A stretch of 20,000 nucleotides of DNA from Paramecium tetraurelia (lineage: Eukaryota), in NCBI GenBank assembly GCA_000165425.1, contig CT868096.1, forward strand, positions 619,129 through 639,128, read 5' to 3'. A model generated the notes under the pieces. It was not told where the DNA came from. It did no database searches and saw only the letters and a list, made by a program, of their open reading frames with translations. Shown one piece after another: positions 2,072 through 10,050 of this stretch. Within the stretch, counting starts at the first letter, position 1; each line of letters opens with the position of its first letter. The translations under genes and the position numbers were made by a program.

Positions 2072-3124
2072 ATTATTAATTATATTTTATATATGAGTCA
2101 GAAAATCAATAACATCATTTTTCAATTTCTCTCAGATGGATACCATTAACCTTTCCCAAGTCTTACTATTTTTCATAGAAAGATTAGAAATAAATTTATA
2201 GTAAGATATATAATTATAAATTTTATATTTGAGTTTTGTGAAATATTGATAGAATTTGCTTGAATGAAAATCCTTGCTCAAAAAGTTTAAAGATTTATTC
2301 AAATAGGCATTGTAATTTATCCTATGATATTCATTCCCATTATTTGATGTATTTACTCAATTAACAGTTATCTTATAATAATTATTAAAATTTAGTGAAT
2401 AGAAATTGTTATTTAAACCAATTTAATCCCCAATTAGAATTTTTATCATATTTTTGTTTAAAGTTAATAAAATATCTCACTCTATCATTTATATAATTAA
2501 TTGAACATTGTGGTAAATAAAGTATAAGATTAAAAGGTTTCTATTTTACTAAATTTAACTTGGAGACTGTAAATCTTGATATATAGTTTATAAATAATTA
2601 CCAAATACTGATTTTTATTTAATCTCAATTATATAATTATATGGGATAACCAAAAAATTTAACTCTAATAGTTAAATTGTTGAGTATTTGTTAATTAAAT
2701 CTTTATTTTCTAAAACCATCCTTAAAATACCATTACCTTTTGAAAATCAAATATACTTAAATTTGAGATTTTAAACTAATGATTGATTTTTTATGAAAAT
2801 AATATTAGATTCATAATGAATTTAACTCATCGCCTTAATTTGAACATCATTTTAATATTCTTGAAACGAGAAAGGGAATTTTTAAGCAAAATAACAATTT
2901 TTGATAATACAATAAGATTTTTTGTGAATGGATTGTAGAAATATAATATATCATTGATACGCATTGATCTAATAGCAAAATAAGTCTTCTAAACTGAAAT
3001 TTAAATGTTCTCCTAAACTTTAGATAAGAAACATTTAGATTTATGATGAGTCTTATAGCATTTTCTTCTTACTAATTTAAGTTTTGAGTAATTTGTTAGT
3101 AAGATAACAAATTAAATAATAAAA

Positions 3125-5155
3125 ATGAAAGCTAAGGCAATAATTGAATTTATCGTTTTTGTGGATTCGCTTAAAACTATTGGGATCTTTTTATTGGATG
3201 AGGGAATGTATCAAATAAGGATTAACTTATATATATAGAGTGTAAGTGATTTTGAGTATTGCAGTCCCAAAATTTGAAGATTCCTCTCACTCCGAAAGAA
3301 ACTTTGCTATTCAAGAGAAATGAATAACAATATTTGCCATAACATATAATTGATAACTATTATATGAGTGATGCTTTCTTATTGAGATAATGGACGGAGG
3401 AAGTAATAAATTATTTAAATTGGAAAGGAAAAATTTGAGATAAAAAATGGATGTAGGTTCAGCGGTGCAATTCCACATAATTTAAAAGAGTAGCCCTGTT
3501 TCATGGAGATTGAATTAATGTATTACGATTTAGCATAAAAAATTGTCTCATTTTAAAGTATATCGATGGCGAAGTTTAAAATTGAAAACTCATCAAATGG
3601 GATATATGAATATGTTCCTGTAATATTAGGGGAAGATCACTTTAGTTTATTAAATCTGATGGTATAATTGAATAACTAATAAATTAGGTTCTTTGTTCAT
3701 TGACTAGTTTTGATATTTAACTATAGTAGGTATAAAGTGAGGATAAGATGGCACTAGATCAACATTAACATATAAACATGAGACAACTATATAACAAAGT
3801 GTTGGAACCTCTTAAAACATCTTATCGAAATATGCAGACATTCTATTATAATATGGAGTTAGAAATGGAAAGAGCAAGCAGCAGTGGAGGTATGCAATAT
3901 CAACTTCGACAAACGAAAAGTTTTTAGGTTTTGCCATTATCTAGCGCGGATTCATTATTAAAAAATGAATAAAATACATAATTGATTAGCAAAGTTATGG
4001 CCAATGAATTCAAAGTGCTATAAAGTACAATAAACTAATTGTGGCATAAAATAATTATTGGATTAAAATTAGGCCATTAAAAATTACTCAGGTAACTGAA
4101 GAAGGAGTCATTAACAAATTTCTAAAGTCGATACTCTGCATTTACACAGAAAGAAGTAATTCCTGTTGTAGATCATCAATATACTATGATTCCTTAATAA
4201 CAGAAATAAAGTCAAGAGTAGGCAGATTTATAGAGTAAAAGATTGGAGTATCAGAAATTGTTACTACAAGGTCCATCGAAAATAGTTGATTTAAAAATAA
4301 TAGATGAAATCAAGGATAAGTTAATGATAGTTGAAAAACATTATGTTACAAGATAAACATTTTAATTATCAAGATCAAAATTGCATCTAATTGTTTTGGT
4401 TCATGGTTATTAAGGCCATTCTTATGATATGAGATTATTGGAGAACTATATGTGTTTAAGGTTTCCTTAGCATATGTTATTGGTTTCATTGTGCAATCAG
4501 TAAAACACAGAAGGAGATATATTACAAATGGGTAAATATCTTAGTGACGAAATTAAAAACTATATTGCAACATGGTCTTATACCGATAAATTAGTTATCT
4601 CATTTATCGGACATTCGTTAGGAGGATTAATTATAAGAGCAGCATTACCATATTTGGATTTTGAGTTTCATACTTTCTTAACATTAGGAACACCACATTT
4701 GGGTAATGTTACTAATTAAAGACCTTTAATAAAATTTGGAATGTGGTTTTTTTAGAAACTAAAGAAATCTCTAAGTTTATCTCAATTAAATTGTTATGAT
4801 GATACATTGTTAAAACTATCCTTATTTCCTGGAATGAATAAATTTAAACATATTATTTTATTTGGATCTCAATAAGATCATTATGTGAATAGTGAAAGCA
4901 GTTTATTAATGAAAGTCTCAGGAATTGAGAATGAATTAAAGCATAATGAAATGGCAACTAATATCTTAAGACAATTGCATCAAAATGAAGTCTTAAGAAT
5001 TAGCATTGATTATAAGTTCTATGATGGGTATAAGTCTTAATATTATTCATAGAGATTTTGATACTTTTTTAGGGAGGAAAGCACATATAGCCATCTTGGA
5101 ATCACATTTTCTAAATTAATACATAATATATAACTTAGGAGACTATTTCAAATGA
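3125..5155 (+). CDS. FAM135-like / DUF676 putative serine esterase (alpha/beta hydrolase), about 643 aa
   Basis: Motifs HLIVLVHGYQGHSYDMRLL, ISFIGHSLGGLIIRAAL (GxSxG nucleophile elbow), FLTLGTPHLG, GSQQDHYV and GRKAHIAILES. Four introns (3242-3264, 3403-3427, 3662-3687, 5028-5052) restore one frame from ATG 3125 to TGA 5153-5155. Confidence 0.9.
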
Positions 5156-5242: not shown

Positions 5243-6395
5243 ATGCTGGCTTTACTATTAGTGCAGATAGGAAGTTCAATGCCAATATATGGAAACTTCT
5301 CTTAATACTATTATTATGTAGAATTGAATAATAAAAAATGGATTTTAGATTAGGCTTTTGATGGTGCTATAGAAGATACTGAATGTCTAGGTAGCAACAA
5401 TTCAAAATCCTAATTTTTCTTTGCTTAAAGATTTATATAGATTCGTTCTCTTCCTTTAAGTAAAAATATGATAAGAGAAGCTGATAGTGCAAATTACATT
5501 TGTTAAGATACTTGTAAAATGTAGATAGGTGATTTTACAATCAATAATTACTGTGGATAATTCTACAGTTAACATTAGGAAATTAATAATTATTTAGGTC
5601 TTGGTTAAATAGTACAAAATCCTAAAAGCGATTAGCAACTTAAATTATGTTTGGCTTAAAATGGAGGTTATATGAAAATTGGTAATTTTGAGAATGATGA
5701 GCATCACATTTAAATTGATTATGTCTAACTAAATTGTTTTATGGAATCTAATTGTTAAAAGAATAGATTGTAATTCATCGGTTTAGAAATAAAATAATTT
5801 TTCTTATATCCCTTGAGTAAAATTGAAGTAGTAGCGGATTTCTCAAATACATATGTTGAGCTTCCTTCTTATATGTATATGCCTTTAATATAGCACATAT
5901 AATGTTAAGGAGTTTTCTGTCCTAGAAGAAATGATTCAGAAGGACTGATATGCTATGATAATGACTATGATGATGTAGATAAATTTTATCAGAAGTTTCC
6001 CAATATTCGCTTTTATTTTTATGTAAACTCAAAATTTGTTTGGTTTCCATAAGATTATTTAGTTACACATGATAATAAGACTTATTGTTTTCCTGTAAGA
6101 GGAGGAAGTAACTTTATATTTATTTGAAATAGCATCCAAAATTATTCTGGGTTAACCATTTATGAGAAATAAAGAGTTTATTTTTGGAAAGGATAAATTA
6201 ATTATCAATTACCAAAATTGCTCCGAAGAAACTAGCCTTGATGCTCCAACAATATCATTGTATATAGAAAAGGAAATCTCAAAATTTTACACAGGGATAT
6301 CATTGCTCATATCCACATTCATCATTTATTACATCCTATTTAAGTTTAAATAGAGGAAAACAAATTAATAATTGATTAATCCACACATTCAATGA
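5243..6395 (+). CDS. Pepsin-family (A1) aspartic protease homologue with degenerate catalytic motifs, signal peptide and C-terminal TM helix, about 375 aa
   Basis: MLALLLVQIGSSMPIYGNFSQYYYYVEL..WILDQAF; YLGLG; LCLAQNGGYMKIG; VVADFSNTYVELP; FPNIRFYF..WFPQDYL..YCFPV; IILGQPFMRNKEFIF; hydrophobic GISLLISTFIIYYILF. One frame-restoring intron at 6108-6132. An in-frame upstream ATG at 5183 is an alternative start. Confidence 0.85.
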
Positions 6396-7625
6396 TTATT
6401 TTATTATTTTCTATTGTAAGTTCTTAATTAATATTTGATCTCAAAAGAGATGTTTATAAGTCAGAGTATTTCATAGAATTAGATATCGGTACTCCATCAA
6501 AGAAAACTAACTTTGTTGCTGACACTGGCGCTCCGATAACTTCATTTATATGCAATTCTGTAAGAATCCTAAATTAAACATAGAATTCAAATACTTTGCA
6601 TATGTGCAATTAGGATCAGAACTCAGATTGCTTGTCTTAATTTGTCACTTATGATGGAGAATTGTCTAGTGCAATTTCAGCATATGATCTAATGAAGATT
6701 CAAAAAAACAATATAATATTAAACTTTGAATGCATTTCACAAGATTCAACCTAAATATTAGGATTGGGAAGTTAAAGCAATTTTATTAACGCCTTATATA
6801 AAGAATTTTAATTTTAAAGCGAACATTAGATATTTTCAATATTATTAACAAATGAAAATGGCAAATTAACTGTCGGTCAAGATTATCCAAATTATAATGA
6901 TAGTAGTATTCCTTTTTCTTATTAGTCCTACTATTTTTAAGTAGACTTAGTAACTGTCTCAGTAAATTTATTAATAATTTAAGGATGATAATAATAATAT
7001 AGTTTTTTAACCAAATCAACTTGAGGACTATGAGATTATTGTAGATACAGGAAGCACATTAATTAATATGGATTCTGAAACTTTCTAATCTTTTATAAAA
7101 TCATTTTCTAAATGCGAAAAAGATCCTAGAGGATGTCCCTAAAAAAAGGAGATATATGGATATTAATGTTATTTGTATAATAGGCCTCATTATGGTGACA
7201 TCTCTAATTTTTATGAAACTTTTCCTGAGTTTAGTTTCAACTTTAAAAATGGCTATAAGTATAAATTGAGTGCAAAAGATTATTTGATTAATTTATAGGA
7301 TAATTATTATTGTGTGCCTTTTGAAGGTTTTGCAAGAAATTATGAAACTAAATTCAAAAAAATCATTCTTTTAGGACAACCTTTTATGAGAAATAAAGAA
7401 TTTTATTTTGATTTGAAAGAATATAAAATTTTCATTAAAGATCCAGAAACATCATAAAATTTTTTGCATTATACGAATTTAACAGATTTGGGTTTGAATA
7501 CTTATATTTTTGTGGAACTTGCCTTAATGATTGGGATTTGCTTCTTTTACAGAAAATATTCAGCCCAAATAAGAGGAATGTTTAGATCCAGCAGACCAAA
7601 CTAAGGGGTTAATCCTTATGCTTGA
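6392..7625 (+). CDS. Pepsin-family (A1) aspartic protease with two intact DTG motifs, signal peptide and C-terminal TM helix, about 395 aa
   Basis: MIILLFSIVSS signal; YFIELDIGTPSKKTNFVADTGAP (DTG at 6521-6529); ILGLG; IIVDTGSTLINM (DTG at 7044-7052); ILLGQPFMRNKEFYFD; TM YIFVELALMIGICFFY. Introns at 6560-6583 (24 nt, frame-neutral) and 6962-6983 (22 nt). TGA at 7623-7625. Confidence 0.92.
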
Positions 7626-8222
7626 TTTAAATTAATATATTACATTTATGTTCACATAATAAAATAAATAGCTAACCTTCACAACTTCATTCAAAACTCC
7701 TCTAATATTGATTCGATCAAATCTTGGGAAAATTTCAAAAAATGAAAACAAATCATTCAATTAAGTACAAATATGATGTGTTATCTTGATTTTTAATATT
7801 AATAAAATTTAATTAAAACAATATAGTAAGTTGTCCTTTAACTTATGTGTAAGCAGATACATATTTTGGATAAAATGATCTACTATCTAAGGATAGAATT
7901 AAATTGACATGAAAATCAAGGAATTTAATTTAAGGAAGAGTTAGATAACTAGTTTCATAATATATTAAAGAATTTCTATTCGCTTAGAAAATATGATTTA
8001 TGGAAATGATTATTCGAGATAGTAATCTTACTAAATAAAAAATTCATCTCAGTTGCATTTAAGGAAAAAAAATATTATACATCTATTCTACATCTTAATA
8101 AGTTAGAAACTTTCGGACATCAATTCAAGAAGACTTGTTCAATTAAATTGAAGAATTTATTTGTGTATTTCATCTGTAATAAATTTAATAATTAATTATT
8201 TATTGAATTATTTTATTAATAA

Positions 8223-9168
8223 TCATTTTAAAATGCTTCTTTCGCTTGTACATGCCAACTGATGTTCTAAGAAATAACATGGGAATATTATGTCACCATC
8301 ATAATACAATTAGGATAAAAAGTATAGGTTTCCATTCTTACCTAGATGTTTTCTGAATTCTACCAATTAAATATTTAACAATGTAAAGGAATAAATAAAA
8401 AACAATATTAAAATCCTTTAAAATTAAATTAAAATCTACCAAATAATTGCTGTCATCATATCCTAGATATTCAAATATAAACCCACGAATAATATTTCAA
8501 ATAAAAGCACAAATGATATTCTAGTAAATAAATTAATTTGAAAGTAAGTACCTCCATGGTTAATCAGAAACAAGGAAGCAGTTTTTAATTCCATCCTCCT
8601 TATCAAAATGGGAACAAATTAAAATAATTATTAAATTGATGAAGATTACGGCAATAAAAACACCCAAATTCAATTCTGGATATAAAATAACTGCATATAC
8701 AAACCAGAATAATCTAACAATAGTATTTACTCCCTATTTATTAAATTATTAGATTACAAACAAAAATACGTTTTTAGGTGACTTTAAGGATTATGAATTA
8801 CTAAATTATGCTAATGCCAATGATAAGATGTAAAGCATCAAAAGCACAACCCAAATAATAAATGGTATTTGCAAGATCTATTCGCTTAAATTAAAATGAG
8901 TTAATAATCCAATAACTAGTAATGCAACACCAAAATGAATCGACAATACTAATATATATTTGAATTGATTTTCCTAAATCTAGTTTTTGCTATTCCTCAA
9001 TACTAGGTCCTCTGTTACTAATCGGTTCTGTGATTGATATGACTTACTATGTAGTATTGTTTATAGCTGATTTTCTAACAAATATATCCAATATTCCCTC
9101 CATTAATGGCTTTTTGTCCTAATTTATTAGTTATTCTCACTTACTTCCACTTAATCTCGTTATTACAT
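8223..9168 (-). CDS. Multi-pass membrane protein, possibly a divergent Bax inhibitor-1/TMBIM family member, about 288 aa
   Basis: ATG 9168 to TGA 8225-8223 with introns at 8734-8757, 8521-8551 and 8416-8439. Six or seven hydrophobic segments follow a polar N-terminus. PKNVFLFGVNT and YFLSQLYYDGDIIF loosely resemble TMBIM motifs, so the family call is tentative. Confidence 0.7.
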
Positions 9169-9272
9169 TTATATAATTTAATAACAATTAATAATTAAAC
9201 GAATTTATGTATTTGATAATGATTAATCAATTTTATTATCTAAGTATTAAATTAATGGTTAATACGATGTGA

Positions 9273-9882
9273 TCATCCTAAGTAACAGTCTTCTTAGGAA
9301 AGAGATCTTATAATTTTGTACATAAGAAATCTTTAATTGGGGATTGTACTTAGTTGATATTTTATCTAGCTTATTTCATCTAAATTCTATTAAATTGTTA
9401 CATTTTAAAAAAATTAGTTTAATTTTTCCTTATTAAGCTCTGATTGTTAAAAATTTTAATCTGGTGACTTATCTTTTTCCTTGTTAGTTTAAATTAGTAG
9501 ATTATAATTTTTAATCTATTTGTTTAACTTAAGATTAGCTCTAACACTTGAGATTAACTATAATCATTTAATTCTTATATACTTAATAAACGTATGAATC
9601 CTTAAAATATTTCAGATTGCTTAATTATGAGGTTAATTAGTCTGAATTTTGGAAATTTGAATCAACTACTACTTAAACATTTATCTCAGGTCTATTTAGA
9701 TATTCTGATTAGTTAGGGACTGGTATTTCTCTTGAATTGGATGTATTAGGATTGATTTAAGCAGAATTGACTTAGGAAGATCGATTTTCTCCAATATAGT
9801 ACCCCCCAGAATTCATCTAATCATAAAAATTGACACTCTTTTCACTGTTTTAACTCTTTTCAGTCGTTTCACTTTAATTCAT
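9273..9882 (-). CDS. Hypothetical low-complexity N/Q/S-rich protein, about 194 aa
   Basis: ATG 9882 (MNQSETTEKSQNSEKSVNFYDQMNSGGYYIGE); a 25-nt frame-restoring intron (GTATATAAG..TTATAG, about 9558-9582); TGA at 9275-9273. Confidence 0.7.
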
Positions 9883-10050
9883 AATAAATATATATATTAT
9901 ATTATTCTTTATAAATTAACACTATTTATAATCCATGAATTGTCAGCATTAAACAAAGTAAGATATTTCATTAGTTAAATGAAAGAAGTATAAAGGCCAT
10001 AATACTAATGTAAAAGTTATCATTATATGTAAGATATATAATAAGTCATA

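Follow-up and report, generated by a model that had tools for sequence, protein, structure and literature searches.

We analysed a window of 20,000 nucleotides (nt) of Paramecium tetraurelia DNA (contig CT868096.1; positions below are those of the window), in which two genes for membrane-anchored A1-type aspartic protease homologues, gene 1 and gene 2, follow each other on the + strand and overlap in an ATGA. Reading frames were translated with genetic code 6, and the GC content of the window is 20-30%. Gene 1 (5243-6395, +) starts with the ATG at 5243, has one intron of 25 nt (6108-6132), ends with the TGA at 6393-6395 and encodes 375 amino acids (aa), without internal stops in its frame. Gene 2 (6392-7625, +) starts with the ATG at 6392, has two introns (24 and 22 nt), ends with the TGA at 7623-7625 and encodes 395 aa. 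Our results show that gene 1 is a conserved, expressed pseudoprotease and suggest that gene 2 is a working protease. The public protein P0009 (P. tetraurelia GSPATT00000912001, 758 aa) joins the two, as it is identical to residues 1-331 of gene 1 followed by the entire gene 2. The features of the locus are as follows.

5243-6107 (+): gene 1 exon 1, encoding the signal peptide, the N-lobe and the larger part of the C-lobe; equals residues 1-288 of P0009; + strand RNA
5243-5278 (+): signal peptide predicted for gene 1, short (about 12 codons), by hydropathy only and with an inferred boundary
5348-5359 (+): degenerate first catalytic motif of gene 1, DQAF (D36); DQAF, DQNF and DQNF in orthologues
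5591-5605 (+): N-lobe hydrophobic-hydrophobic-Gly psi-loop motif of gene 1, YLGLG, kept according to the alignment
5837-5848 (+): degenerate second catalytic motif of gene 1, DFSN (D199); DFTN, DFTN, DFTN and DLSS in orthologues
6108-6132 (+): gene 1 intron, 25 nt, spliced in contig run X3 and kept in X5; its retention gives a stop at codon 295
6133-6395 (+): gene 1 exon 2, with C-lobe psi-loop motif, stalk, transmembrane helix, short tail and TGA; orthologues P0005 and P0006 end identically
6144-6179 (+): ILGQPFMRNKEF, gene 1 copy of the motif shared by the pair (C-lobe psi-loop), from a coding pattern search
6260-6294 (+): 35-nt 'intron' of the public 758-aa fusion model, unspliced in raw reads and both contig runs and treated here as gene 1 coding sequence
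6285-6341 (+): predicted transmembrane helix of gene 1 (hydropathy 1.84; helix 334-370 in the P0005 model)
6392-6395 (+): ATGA overlap of the gene 2 start codon and the gene 1 stop codon; the same is implied for P. pentaurelia by P0127
6392-6559 (+): gene 2 exon 1; by orthologue comparison no other block of the protein is as conserved as its first 18 codons (signal peptide)
6521-6532 (+): first catalytic motif of gene 2, DTGA, with Ala for the usual Ser in the alignment
6560-6583 (+): gene 2 intron 1, 24 nt, spliced in both contig runs
6584-6961 (+): gene 2 exon 2; by alignment it holds the flap motif TYDG (6647-6658) and the psi-loop motif of the N-lobe, ILGLG (6755-6769)
6962-6983 (+): gene 2 intron 2, 22 nt, spliced in both contig runs
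6984-7625 (+): gene 2 exon 3, with DTGS (7044-7055), LLGQPFMRNKEF (7368-7403), a predicted transmembrane helix (about 7488-7550) and TGA, from translation and hydropathy

Both proteins are predicted to consist of a signal peptide, a pepsin-like domain and a C-terminal transmembrane segment, despite an identity of only 24% across 239 aligned residues. The motif starting with LGQPFM is unique to the pair, its coding pattern being matched twice in the whole genome and both times within the window (a reversed control gave one match). Signal peptides of both genes were called from hydropathy only, and the transmembrane segments are moderate, with a 19-residue Kyte-Doolittle maximum of 1.84 in gene 1 and in gene 2. 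Structure models were those of orthologues rather than of the window proteins, P0005 for gene 1 (89% identical) and P0008 for gene 2 (56% identical), and both contain a long C-terminal helix; in P0008 the helix is present although none of the 19-residue windows reaches a hydropathy of 1.7. The cytosolic tails of the two proteins have similar, conserved ends, NQQLINPHIQ (6363-6392) and NQGVNPYA/NQGLNPYA (about 7596-7622). Possibly, and this is speculation, these ends are a shared sorting signal.

The P0005 model (predicted local distance difference test score (pLDDT) 77, predicted template modelling score 0.73) matched plasmepsin V best (8tyf; Z 21.1, root mean square deviation (rmsd) 4.1, 268 aligned), which we call a tie with TAXI-IIA (Z 20.2), and further matches were basic 7S globulin (Z 19.4) and Bla g 2 (Z 17.1). 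For the P0008 model (pLDDT 87), plasmepsin V shared the top rank with BACE1 and others (Z 26.1, rmsd 3.2, 297 aligned). According to these models gene 1 and gene 2 both have the bilobed pepsin fold, in a predicted type I membrane topology. A profile of relatives gave plasmepsin V 299 bits as compared to 140 for the next family (BACE2); single-sequence searches of the PDB returned nothing relevant, so that plasmepsin V was found by profile only. Pfam families above cut-off were TAXi_C in gene 1 and Asp in gene 2, and a search of the ESM Atlas returned generic pepsin-like clusters at 0.90-0.92 and no closer family. This was further supported by a FastTree of 67 rows, built like our other tree without plasmepsin V itself and without CTH3, where both genes group with a plasmepsin V-like set and three more canonical paralogues of the same genome, apart from 11 other A1 loci (support 99). 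Profile, structure matches and trees agree in placing both proteins with the plasmepsin V/ASP5-like membrane-anchored A1 group, a kinship already suggested in the initial annotation.

The catalytic anatomy was read from an alignment of 43 hand-picked, mainly full-length relatives out of 110 search hits. All 43 relatives carry the catalytic Asp at both sites with a Gly two residues on, and D36 and D199 of gene 1 fall in these columns. The Gly at +2 of both Asp is found in none of the four gene 1 orthologues, which read DQ[AN]F at the first motif and D[FL][TS][NS] at the second, with no D[TS]G in either lobe. The flap motif Y.EG is present in 36 of the 43 relatives, and a Y-[ED]-G equivalent in 0/4 gene 1 sequences. 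The nepenthesin insert (four cysteines after the first motif) is seen in 40/43 relatives but in none of the gene 1 (0/4) or gene 2 (0/3) sequences. The psi-loop motifs of both gene 1 lobes are kept (YLGLG with G119, ILGQ with G295), and gene 1 retains family marks that are gone from gene 2, namely Cys136/Cys318, CLAxNGG and WxP. Recognised active-site features of A1 enzymes are Asp-Thr/Ser-Gly, the hydrophobic-hydrophobic-Gly motif and Tyr75 (PMC11313796, PMC2761423). Because D[TS]G and the flap Tyr are both broken, gene 1 is very probably catalytically inactive, as judged from its sequence.

Orthologues of gene 1 were found in P. octaurelia, P. primaurelia and P. sonneborni (3 hits among 304 candidates), and those of gene 2 in the same three species. 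Identity to P. octaurelia, P. primaurelia, P. pentaurelia and P. sonneborni is 89, 67, 65 and 54% for gene 1 and 87, 64, 65 and 56% for gene 2. Among the gene 1 orthologues, columns conserved in the family are more often invariant (45/69) than the other columns (78/195; Fisher p=4e-4). These comparisons indicate that selection on gene 1 is about as strong as on gene 2. No gene 1 orthologue from beyond these Paramecium species was present among 110 hits from 1.84 billion representatives, the nearest sequences to gene 2 outside the aurelia species were only short unplaced fragments (P0011, P0012, P0020), and a scan of metagenome contigs for more distant loci gave 593 pattern matches with 0 confirmed. 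The P. sonneborni gene 1 model (P0007) has an out-of-frame end and a Gln/Asn-rich repeat insert in the flap region. Taken together, gene 1 is a conserved and expressed pseudoprotease, an A1 non-peptidase homologue in which the fold is kept and the signature is broken.

In gene 2 the motifs DTGA, DTGS, ILGLG, LLG and TYDG are kept in all three full-length orthologues, and the Y-[ED]-G flap equivalent is present in all three full-length gene 2 sequences. The window around the second motif is among the most conserved of the protein, with 14 of 18 positions invariant. These features make it likely that gene 2 is proteolytically active. The public gene 2 models of P. octaurelia and P. primaurelia (P0010, P0124) miss the first exon with DTGA.

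The motifs DQAF, DFSN, DTGA and DTGS had all been named in the initial annotation, and every motif and coordinate proved correct. The same is true for the shared architecture and LGQPFM motif of two otherwise diverged proteins, and for the retained Asp residues without D[TS]G context in gene 1. Its view that the intact frame and intron of gene 1 reflect selection, rather than an unexpressed or neutrally evolving copy, agrees with a divergence equal to that of gene 2, with the enrichment of invariance in structural columns and with a transcript that is spliced in X3. Its statement that gene 2 is active is likely to hold, as the motifs and the flap Tyr are kept, but was taken too readily in view of DTGA and of the missing nepenthesin insert. 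It had overlooked that gene 1 lacks the flap Tyr, that both genes lack the insert and that DTGA is non-canonical.

Other A1 homologues of the genome were compared with the pair. Among 42 other A1-like loci examined, 36 have two D[TS]G motifs and 6 do not, and this census is a lower bound because the underlying Pfam search missed gene 1 itself. Four of the exceptions are degenerate. L034 (C76) reads DTGN/HSGV, with HSG as second motif, as compared to DTGN/DSGE in its close relative L037 (C336); L056 (C335) has DVDL and no second Asp; L063 (C672) has DLTS, no second Asp and a transmembrane segment; and L057 (C68:22300-25000, about 836-1970, +) combines a signal peptide, a pepsin fold and a transmembrane segment with both Asp but without Thr-Gly (DLNS/DSRD). 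The gene just before L057 may be an alkane hydroxylase or desaturase, which it resembles by its His motifs. Of the remaining two, L035 looks broken, and L007 (L007:794, C180) is a plasmepsin V-like paralogue with the nepenthesin insert, in which the first motif is DTAS, not DTGS. No second A1 gene was found within the 2.5-3.9 kb examined around the four degenerate homologues, and therefore motif-less A1 proteins exist here without an adjacent enzyme. Pseudo-A1 proteins thus appear, from their motifs, to be recurrent in this genome.

RNA evidence came from 4 of 24 listed sequencing runs, the raw oligo-dT runs X21 and X22 (one study) and the contig runs X3 and X5; for the latter two the RNA type was guessed, and introns are absent from the contigs apart from the one case in X5 given below. 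At the locus 115 and 138 raw oligo-dT reads were found, all in a single orientation that is consistent with + strand RNA. The pair is weakly expressed, at about 1-4 depth units per 10^9 letters read. In X3 the locus is covered by one contig at 5257-6409 and another at 6420-7601, and none of the three introns is left in them. The oligo-dT depth climbs at 6112-6313 and falls at 6314-6414 in both raw runs. Two separate overlapping mRNAs are very likely the main form of output of the locus.

The explanation that we prefer, with a probability of roughly 0.55, is a tandem-derived pair of separately transcribed genes, a probable protease (gene 2) and a non-catalytic binder (gene 1). One plasmepsin V/ASP5-like membrane-anchored protease gene would have given rise to two neighbours, probably by a tandem duplication before the sampled aurelia species split; we infer a tandem origin because the genes are adjacent and share a private 11-residue motif. 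The two neighbours would then have diverged in complementary ways. Gene 2 would have kept the catalytic apparatus and may now be a low-abundance membrane-anchored protease of the lumen or the surface, probably active and with altered specificity. Gene 1 would have lost the Thr/Ser-Gly context and the flap Tyr while keeping the fold, more of the structural signature of the family and the membrane anchor, and would most likely act as a non-catalytic binder. Like other A1 non-peptidase homologues, it would retain a peptide or protein at the former cleft or close to it, either within the secretory pathway or on the cell surface. The 3' end of gene 1 and the transcription start of gene 2 would lie within each other's coding sequence and so lock the pair together, and with a locked junction the adjacency needs no joint action of the two proteins.

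Five observations weigh against this explanation or parts of it. First, both Asp of gene 1 are invariant (D36 in 4/4 and D199 in 5/5 orthologues), although a dead enzyme needs neither. As many as 45% of the aligned columns are invariant in any case (126/279), but it is chiefly these two unchanging Asp that call for caution on the inactivity of gene 1. Second, residues 68-107 of the P0005 model, the flap region, have a pLDDT below 50, at which a deletion of the flap and a rewriting of it look alike. Third, FastTree did not resolve gene 1 and gene 2 as sisters, and IQ-TREE, run on 25 of the 67 rows, gave a support of 20 with a long-branch warning. Fourth, the score of each gene against the canonical paralogue L003 is no lower than its score against the exons of the other gene. 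Fifth, and against two mRNAs, X5 contains one contig, 5252-7665, in which both gene 2 introns are spliced and the gene 1 intron is kept. In Paramecium, untranslated regions (UTRs) have means of 21.7 nt (5') and 44.6 nt (3'), and overlapping genes sometimes fuse predicted transcription units (PMC5485702). Because of these UTR averages and the ATGA overlap, an mRNA overlap of about 70 nt is expected, and the single X5 contig can therefore be explained without a fused transcript. Retention of the gene 1 intron would cut the protein before its last strands and membrane anchor. This retention could be a result of inefficient splicing, of a sample related to nonsense-mediated decay or of the path chosen in assembly.

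The initial annotation had instead inferred an enzyme with a non-catalytic partner, possibly co-expressed through the overlap and acting in secretory or trichocyst cargo processing. In such a model gene 1 would serve gene 2 alone, as its adaptor, chaperone or inhibitor, and the overlap would couple their expression. We consider this unlikely, even though gene 1 and gene 2 are adjacent in all five species seen. In P. octaurelia, P. primaurelia and P. sonneborni the pair has neighbouring accessions on contigs of equal length and is annotated as two genes, and in P. pentaurelia one merged model (P0127) combines the complete gene 2 with a part of gene 1, with a linker nearly as in the window that runs into Met-Ile. 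This protein implies that the ATGA overlap is common to P. pentaurelia. A partnership would also fit the joint absence of the pair from the sister segment of the recent duplication, the near-equal depth of the two X3 contigs (16.5 and 16.7), the same predicted topology, the conservation of the first 18 residues of gene 2 and the complementary retention of structural marks in gene 1 and catalytic residues in gene 2. Against it, A1 proteases act as monomers, and the four degenerate homologues described above have no adjoining A1 gene. The joint loss is explained equally well by one deletion of two overlapping genes. Adjacency, the conserved overlap and the joint loss are thus accounted for to the same extent by tandem origin and overlapping regulatory signals. 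Co-expression through the overlap fits poorly with RNA that favours separate transcripts, with the low expression or with a mean depth of gene 1 to gene 2 of 2.7:2.3 in X21 (ratio 1.2) and 4.8:1.3 in X22 (ratio 3.6), low counts in both cases. Cargo processing is in line with plasmepsin V and ASP5, which process secretory cargo (PMC8401336). However, the ciliate precedent, Tetrahymena CTH3, is an A1 aspartyl cathepsin with a signal peptide and canonical motifs that processes mucocyst proproteins, and the word 'transmembrane' is absent from the main text of the CTH3 paper (PMC4142616). Nothing was found that ties either gene to trichocysts. In the literature covered, with most subscription journals and some supplements outside it, neither this pair nor any plasmepsin V-like pseudoprotease from a ciliate was found to be described, and the gene accessions of the pair were found in no paper.

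That both genes are non-catalytic, i.e. two diverged binding proteins, is quite unlikely in our view, although three features of gene 2 point in this direction. Ala directly after the first DTG occurs in none of the 43 relatives, the conserved Cys pair at positions 143 and 338 is lost, and the nepenthesin insert that is needed for plasmepsin V function is missing; other plasmepsins, on the other hand, also do without this insert (PMC9478907). The invariant D[TS]G, psi-loop and TYDG motifs, the conserved second-motif window and the confident orthologue model argue for an enzyme.

Conversely, gene 1 could be an atypical but active aspartic hydrolase, whose two Asp meet in a remodelled site. The invariant Asp, the strongly conserved first-motif region (WILDQxFD) and the two intact psi-loop Gly motifs would agree with this, yet Thr/Ser and Gly are replaced in both motifs, with bulky Gln and Phe at +1, the second motif varies between species (DFSN/DFTN/DLSS), and the flap Tyr, an active-site residue (PMC2761423), is missing. 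Retention of Asp also recurs in degenerate copies, since L057 keeps both too, and we regard an active gene 1 as distinctly improbable.

A further possibility is that the pair is a coupled enzyme-pseudoenzyme unit, where the ATGA junction would serve stop-start translational coupling on a read-through mRNA, or where transcription is strictly coupled, and the dead protein would control the protease or feed substrate to it. The junction is indeed conserved. The first 18 residues of gene 2 are invariant at 17/18 positions in three species and thus better conserved than either catalytic motif (post hoc binomial p=7e-5 against a background of 48%), and the last 10 residues of gene 1 are identical in three species, although this is one of eight such blocks and the N-terminus of gene 1 is also well conserved (9/11). 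A plain explanation is double constraint, because the transcription signals of each gene lie in the coding sequence of the other, and we find a coupled unit very unlikely. If true, it would mean pseudoenzyme control of an alveolate secretory protease, the first pseudoprotease partner found for this protease group, and an operon-like stop-start coupling in a ciliate nuclear gene pair.

The public 758-aa model implies a single gene, in which the intron 6260-6294 skips the gene 1 membrane anchor and creates a fusion of pseudoprotease and protease, either as the major product or as a minor isoform; this is highly improbable. In its favour, P0009 of P. tetraurelia and P0127 of P. pentaurelia are both fused models that share the position of the donor, the frame into gene 2 is open from 6242, and the X5 contig spans both genes. 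Yet 6260-6294 is unspliced in both contig runs with no joint listed, and the depth of its bin is the highest in X21 (12.3) and the second-highest in X22 (10.5). Beyond the donor P0009 and P0127 are not alike, the annotation of three further species has the pair as separate genes, and the gene 1 membrane segment and tail are conserved in their own frame. We reject a single fused gene as main product; contigs drop rare variants, which limits what they say on a minor fused isoform. The open alternative frame upstream of gene 2 was also dismissed as evidence of fusion, as about 50 TGA-free codons are, by our estimate, unremarkable in genetic code 6. The public fusion model is probably an annotation error.

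That gene 1 is a decaying pseudogene with a chance open frame, as low expression and the X5 intron retention with truncation at codon 295 might suggest, is largely refuted by an open frame and a divergence rate equal to gene 2 in four other species, by conservation concentrated on structural columns, by the spliced X3 transcript and by the contrast with a truly decayed gene next door (7611-8170).

The pair and its neighbours lie on a segment that has a sister copy from a recent duplication. Upstream, at about 3100-5155 (+), is a putative serine esterase gene of the DUF676 family (Pfam E 3.6e-33), whose stop is 87 bp before the gene 1 ATG, and which has a recent ohnologue on C136 besides 12 or more other paralogous matches. 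On this recent-duplication sister segment the DUF676 gene is kept at 88% nucleotide identity and both protease genes are gone, with about 110 bp left. No recent ohnologues of gene 1 or gene 2 were found, and two older segments with DUF676 paralogues were also without a match. Downstream, 7611-8170 (+) is a decayed, patchy copy of a mevalonate diphosphate decarboxylase gene, with 69-75% nucleotide identity in three pieces to the intact copy on the sister segment (L051:2582-3700, C136). This is reciprocal gene loss, in which the window segment kept the proteases and the sister segment the decarboxylase. Further on, 8182-9939 (-) encodes a multi-pass membrane protein with no Pfam match in the frames scanned, and 8182-9199 is matched on the sister segment (80%).

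On the likely reading, the plasmepsin V/ASP5-like group gains a conserved pseudoprotease with a membrane anchor, from a free-living alveolate in which RNA interference and tagging are standard tools, and the fused public gene model is corrected. Gene 2 in turn offers a natural experiment on whether proteases of the plasmepsin V group can work without the nepenthesin insert, which plasmepsin V itself needs. The significance is limited by the fact that pepsin-fold pseudoenzymes are well known, that several occur in this genome and that close orthologues were found only in Paramecium.

Compared with known systems, the pair is closest in layout to plasmepsin V (Plasmodium) and ASP5 (Toxoplasma), as it shares the signal peptide, the pepsin fold, the C-terminal transmembrane helix and the lack of an evident long prosegment, and gene 1 keeps the family cysteines, CLAxNGG and WxP. 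It differs from them in that both genes are without the nepenthesin insert, that gene 1 is without D[TS]G and flap Tyr, and that gene 2 has DTGA; the own-genome loci L003 and L007 (with the insert) and L039 are better candidates for true orthologues than gene 1 or gene 2. CTH3 is likewise a ciliate A1 protease with a signal peptide in the secretory pathway, but it is a canonical cathepsin, whereas the window genes group with the plasmepsin V-like set. Enzyme-pseudoenzyme pairs such as iRhoms beside rhomboids, and pseudokinases, resemble the locus in having a conserved dead paralogue beside a live family, although their folds are different and their regulatory role is shown by experiment.

For gene 1 itself the nearest parallel is with the A1 non-peptidase homologues (Bla g 2, TAXI/basic 7S globulin/EDGP and inactive pregnancy-associated glycoproteins), which also have a pepsin fold under selection with a broken catalytic signature. 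Bla g 2 has kept both Asp and lost the Gly residues. It is an established example of a pepsin-fold pseudoenzyme (PMC9541408), and in TAXI, 7S globulin and EDGP the C-lobe Asp is lost (PMC11313796), while gene 1 keeps both Asp. These homologues are soluble secreted proteins of plants and animals; gene 1, in contrast, is predicted to be membrane-anchored and would have been derived independently, from the plasmepsin V-like group. Gene 1 is thus an A1 non-peptidase homologue, a member of an already familiar class.

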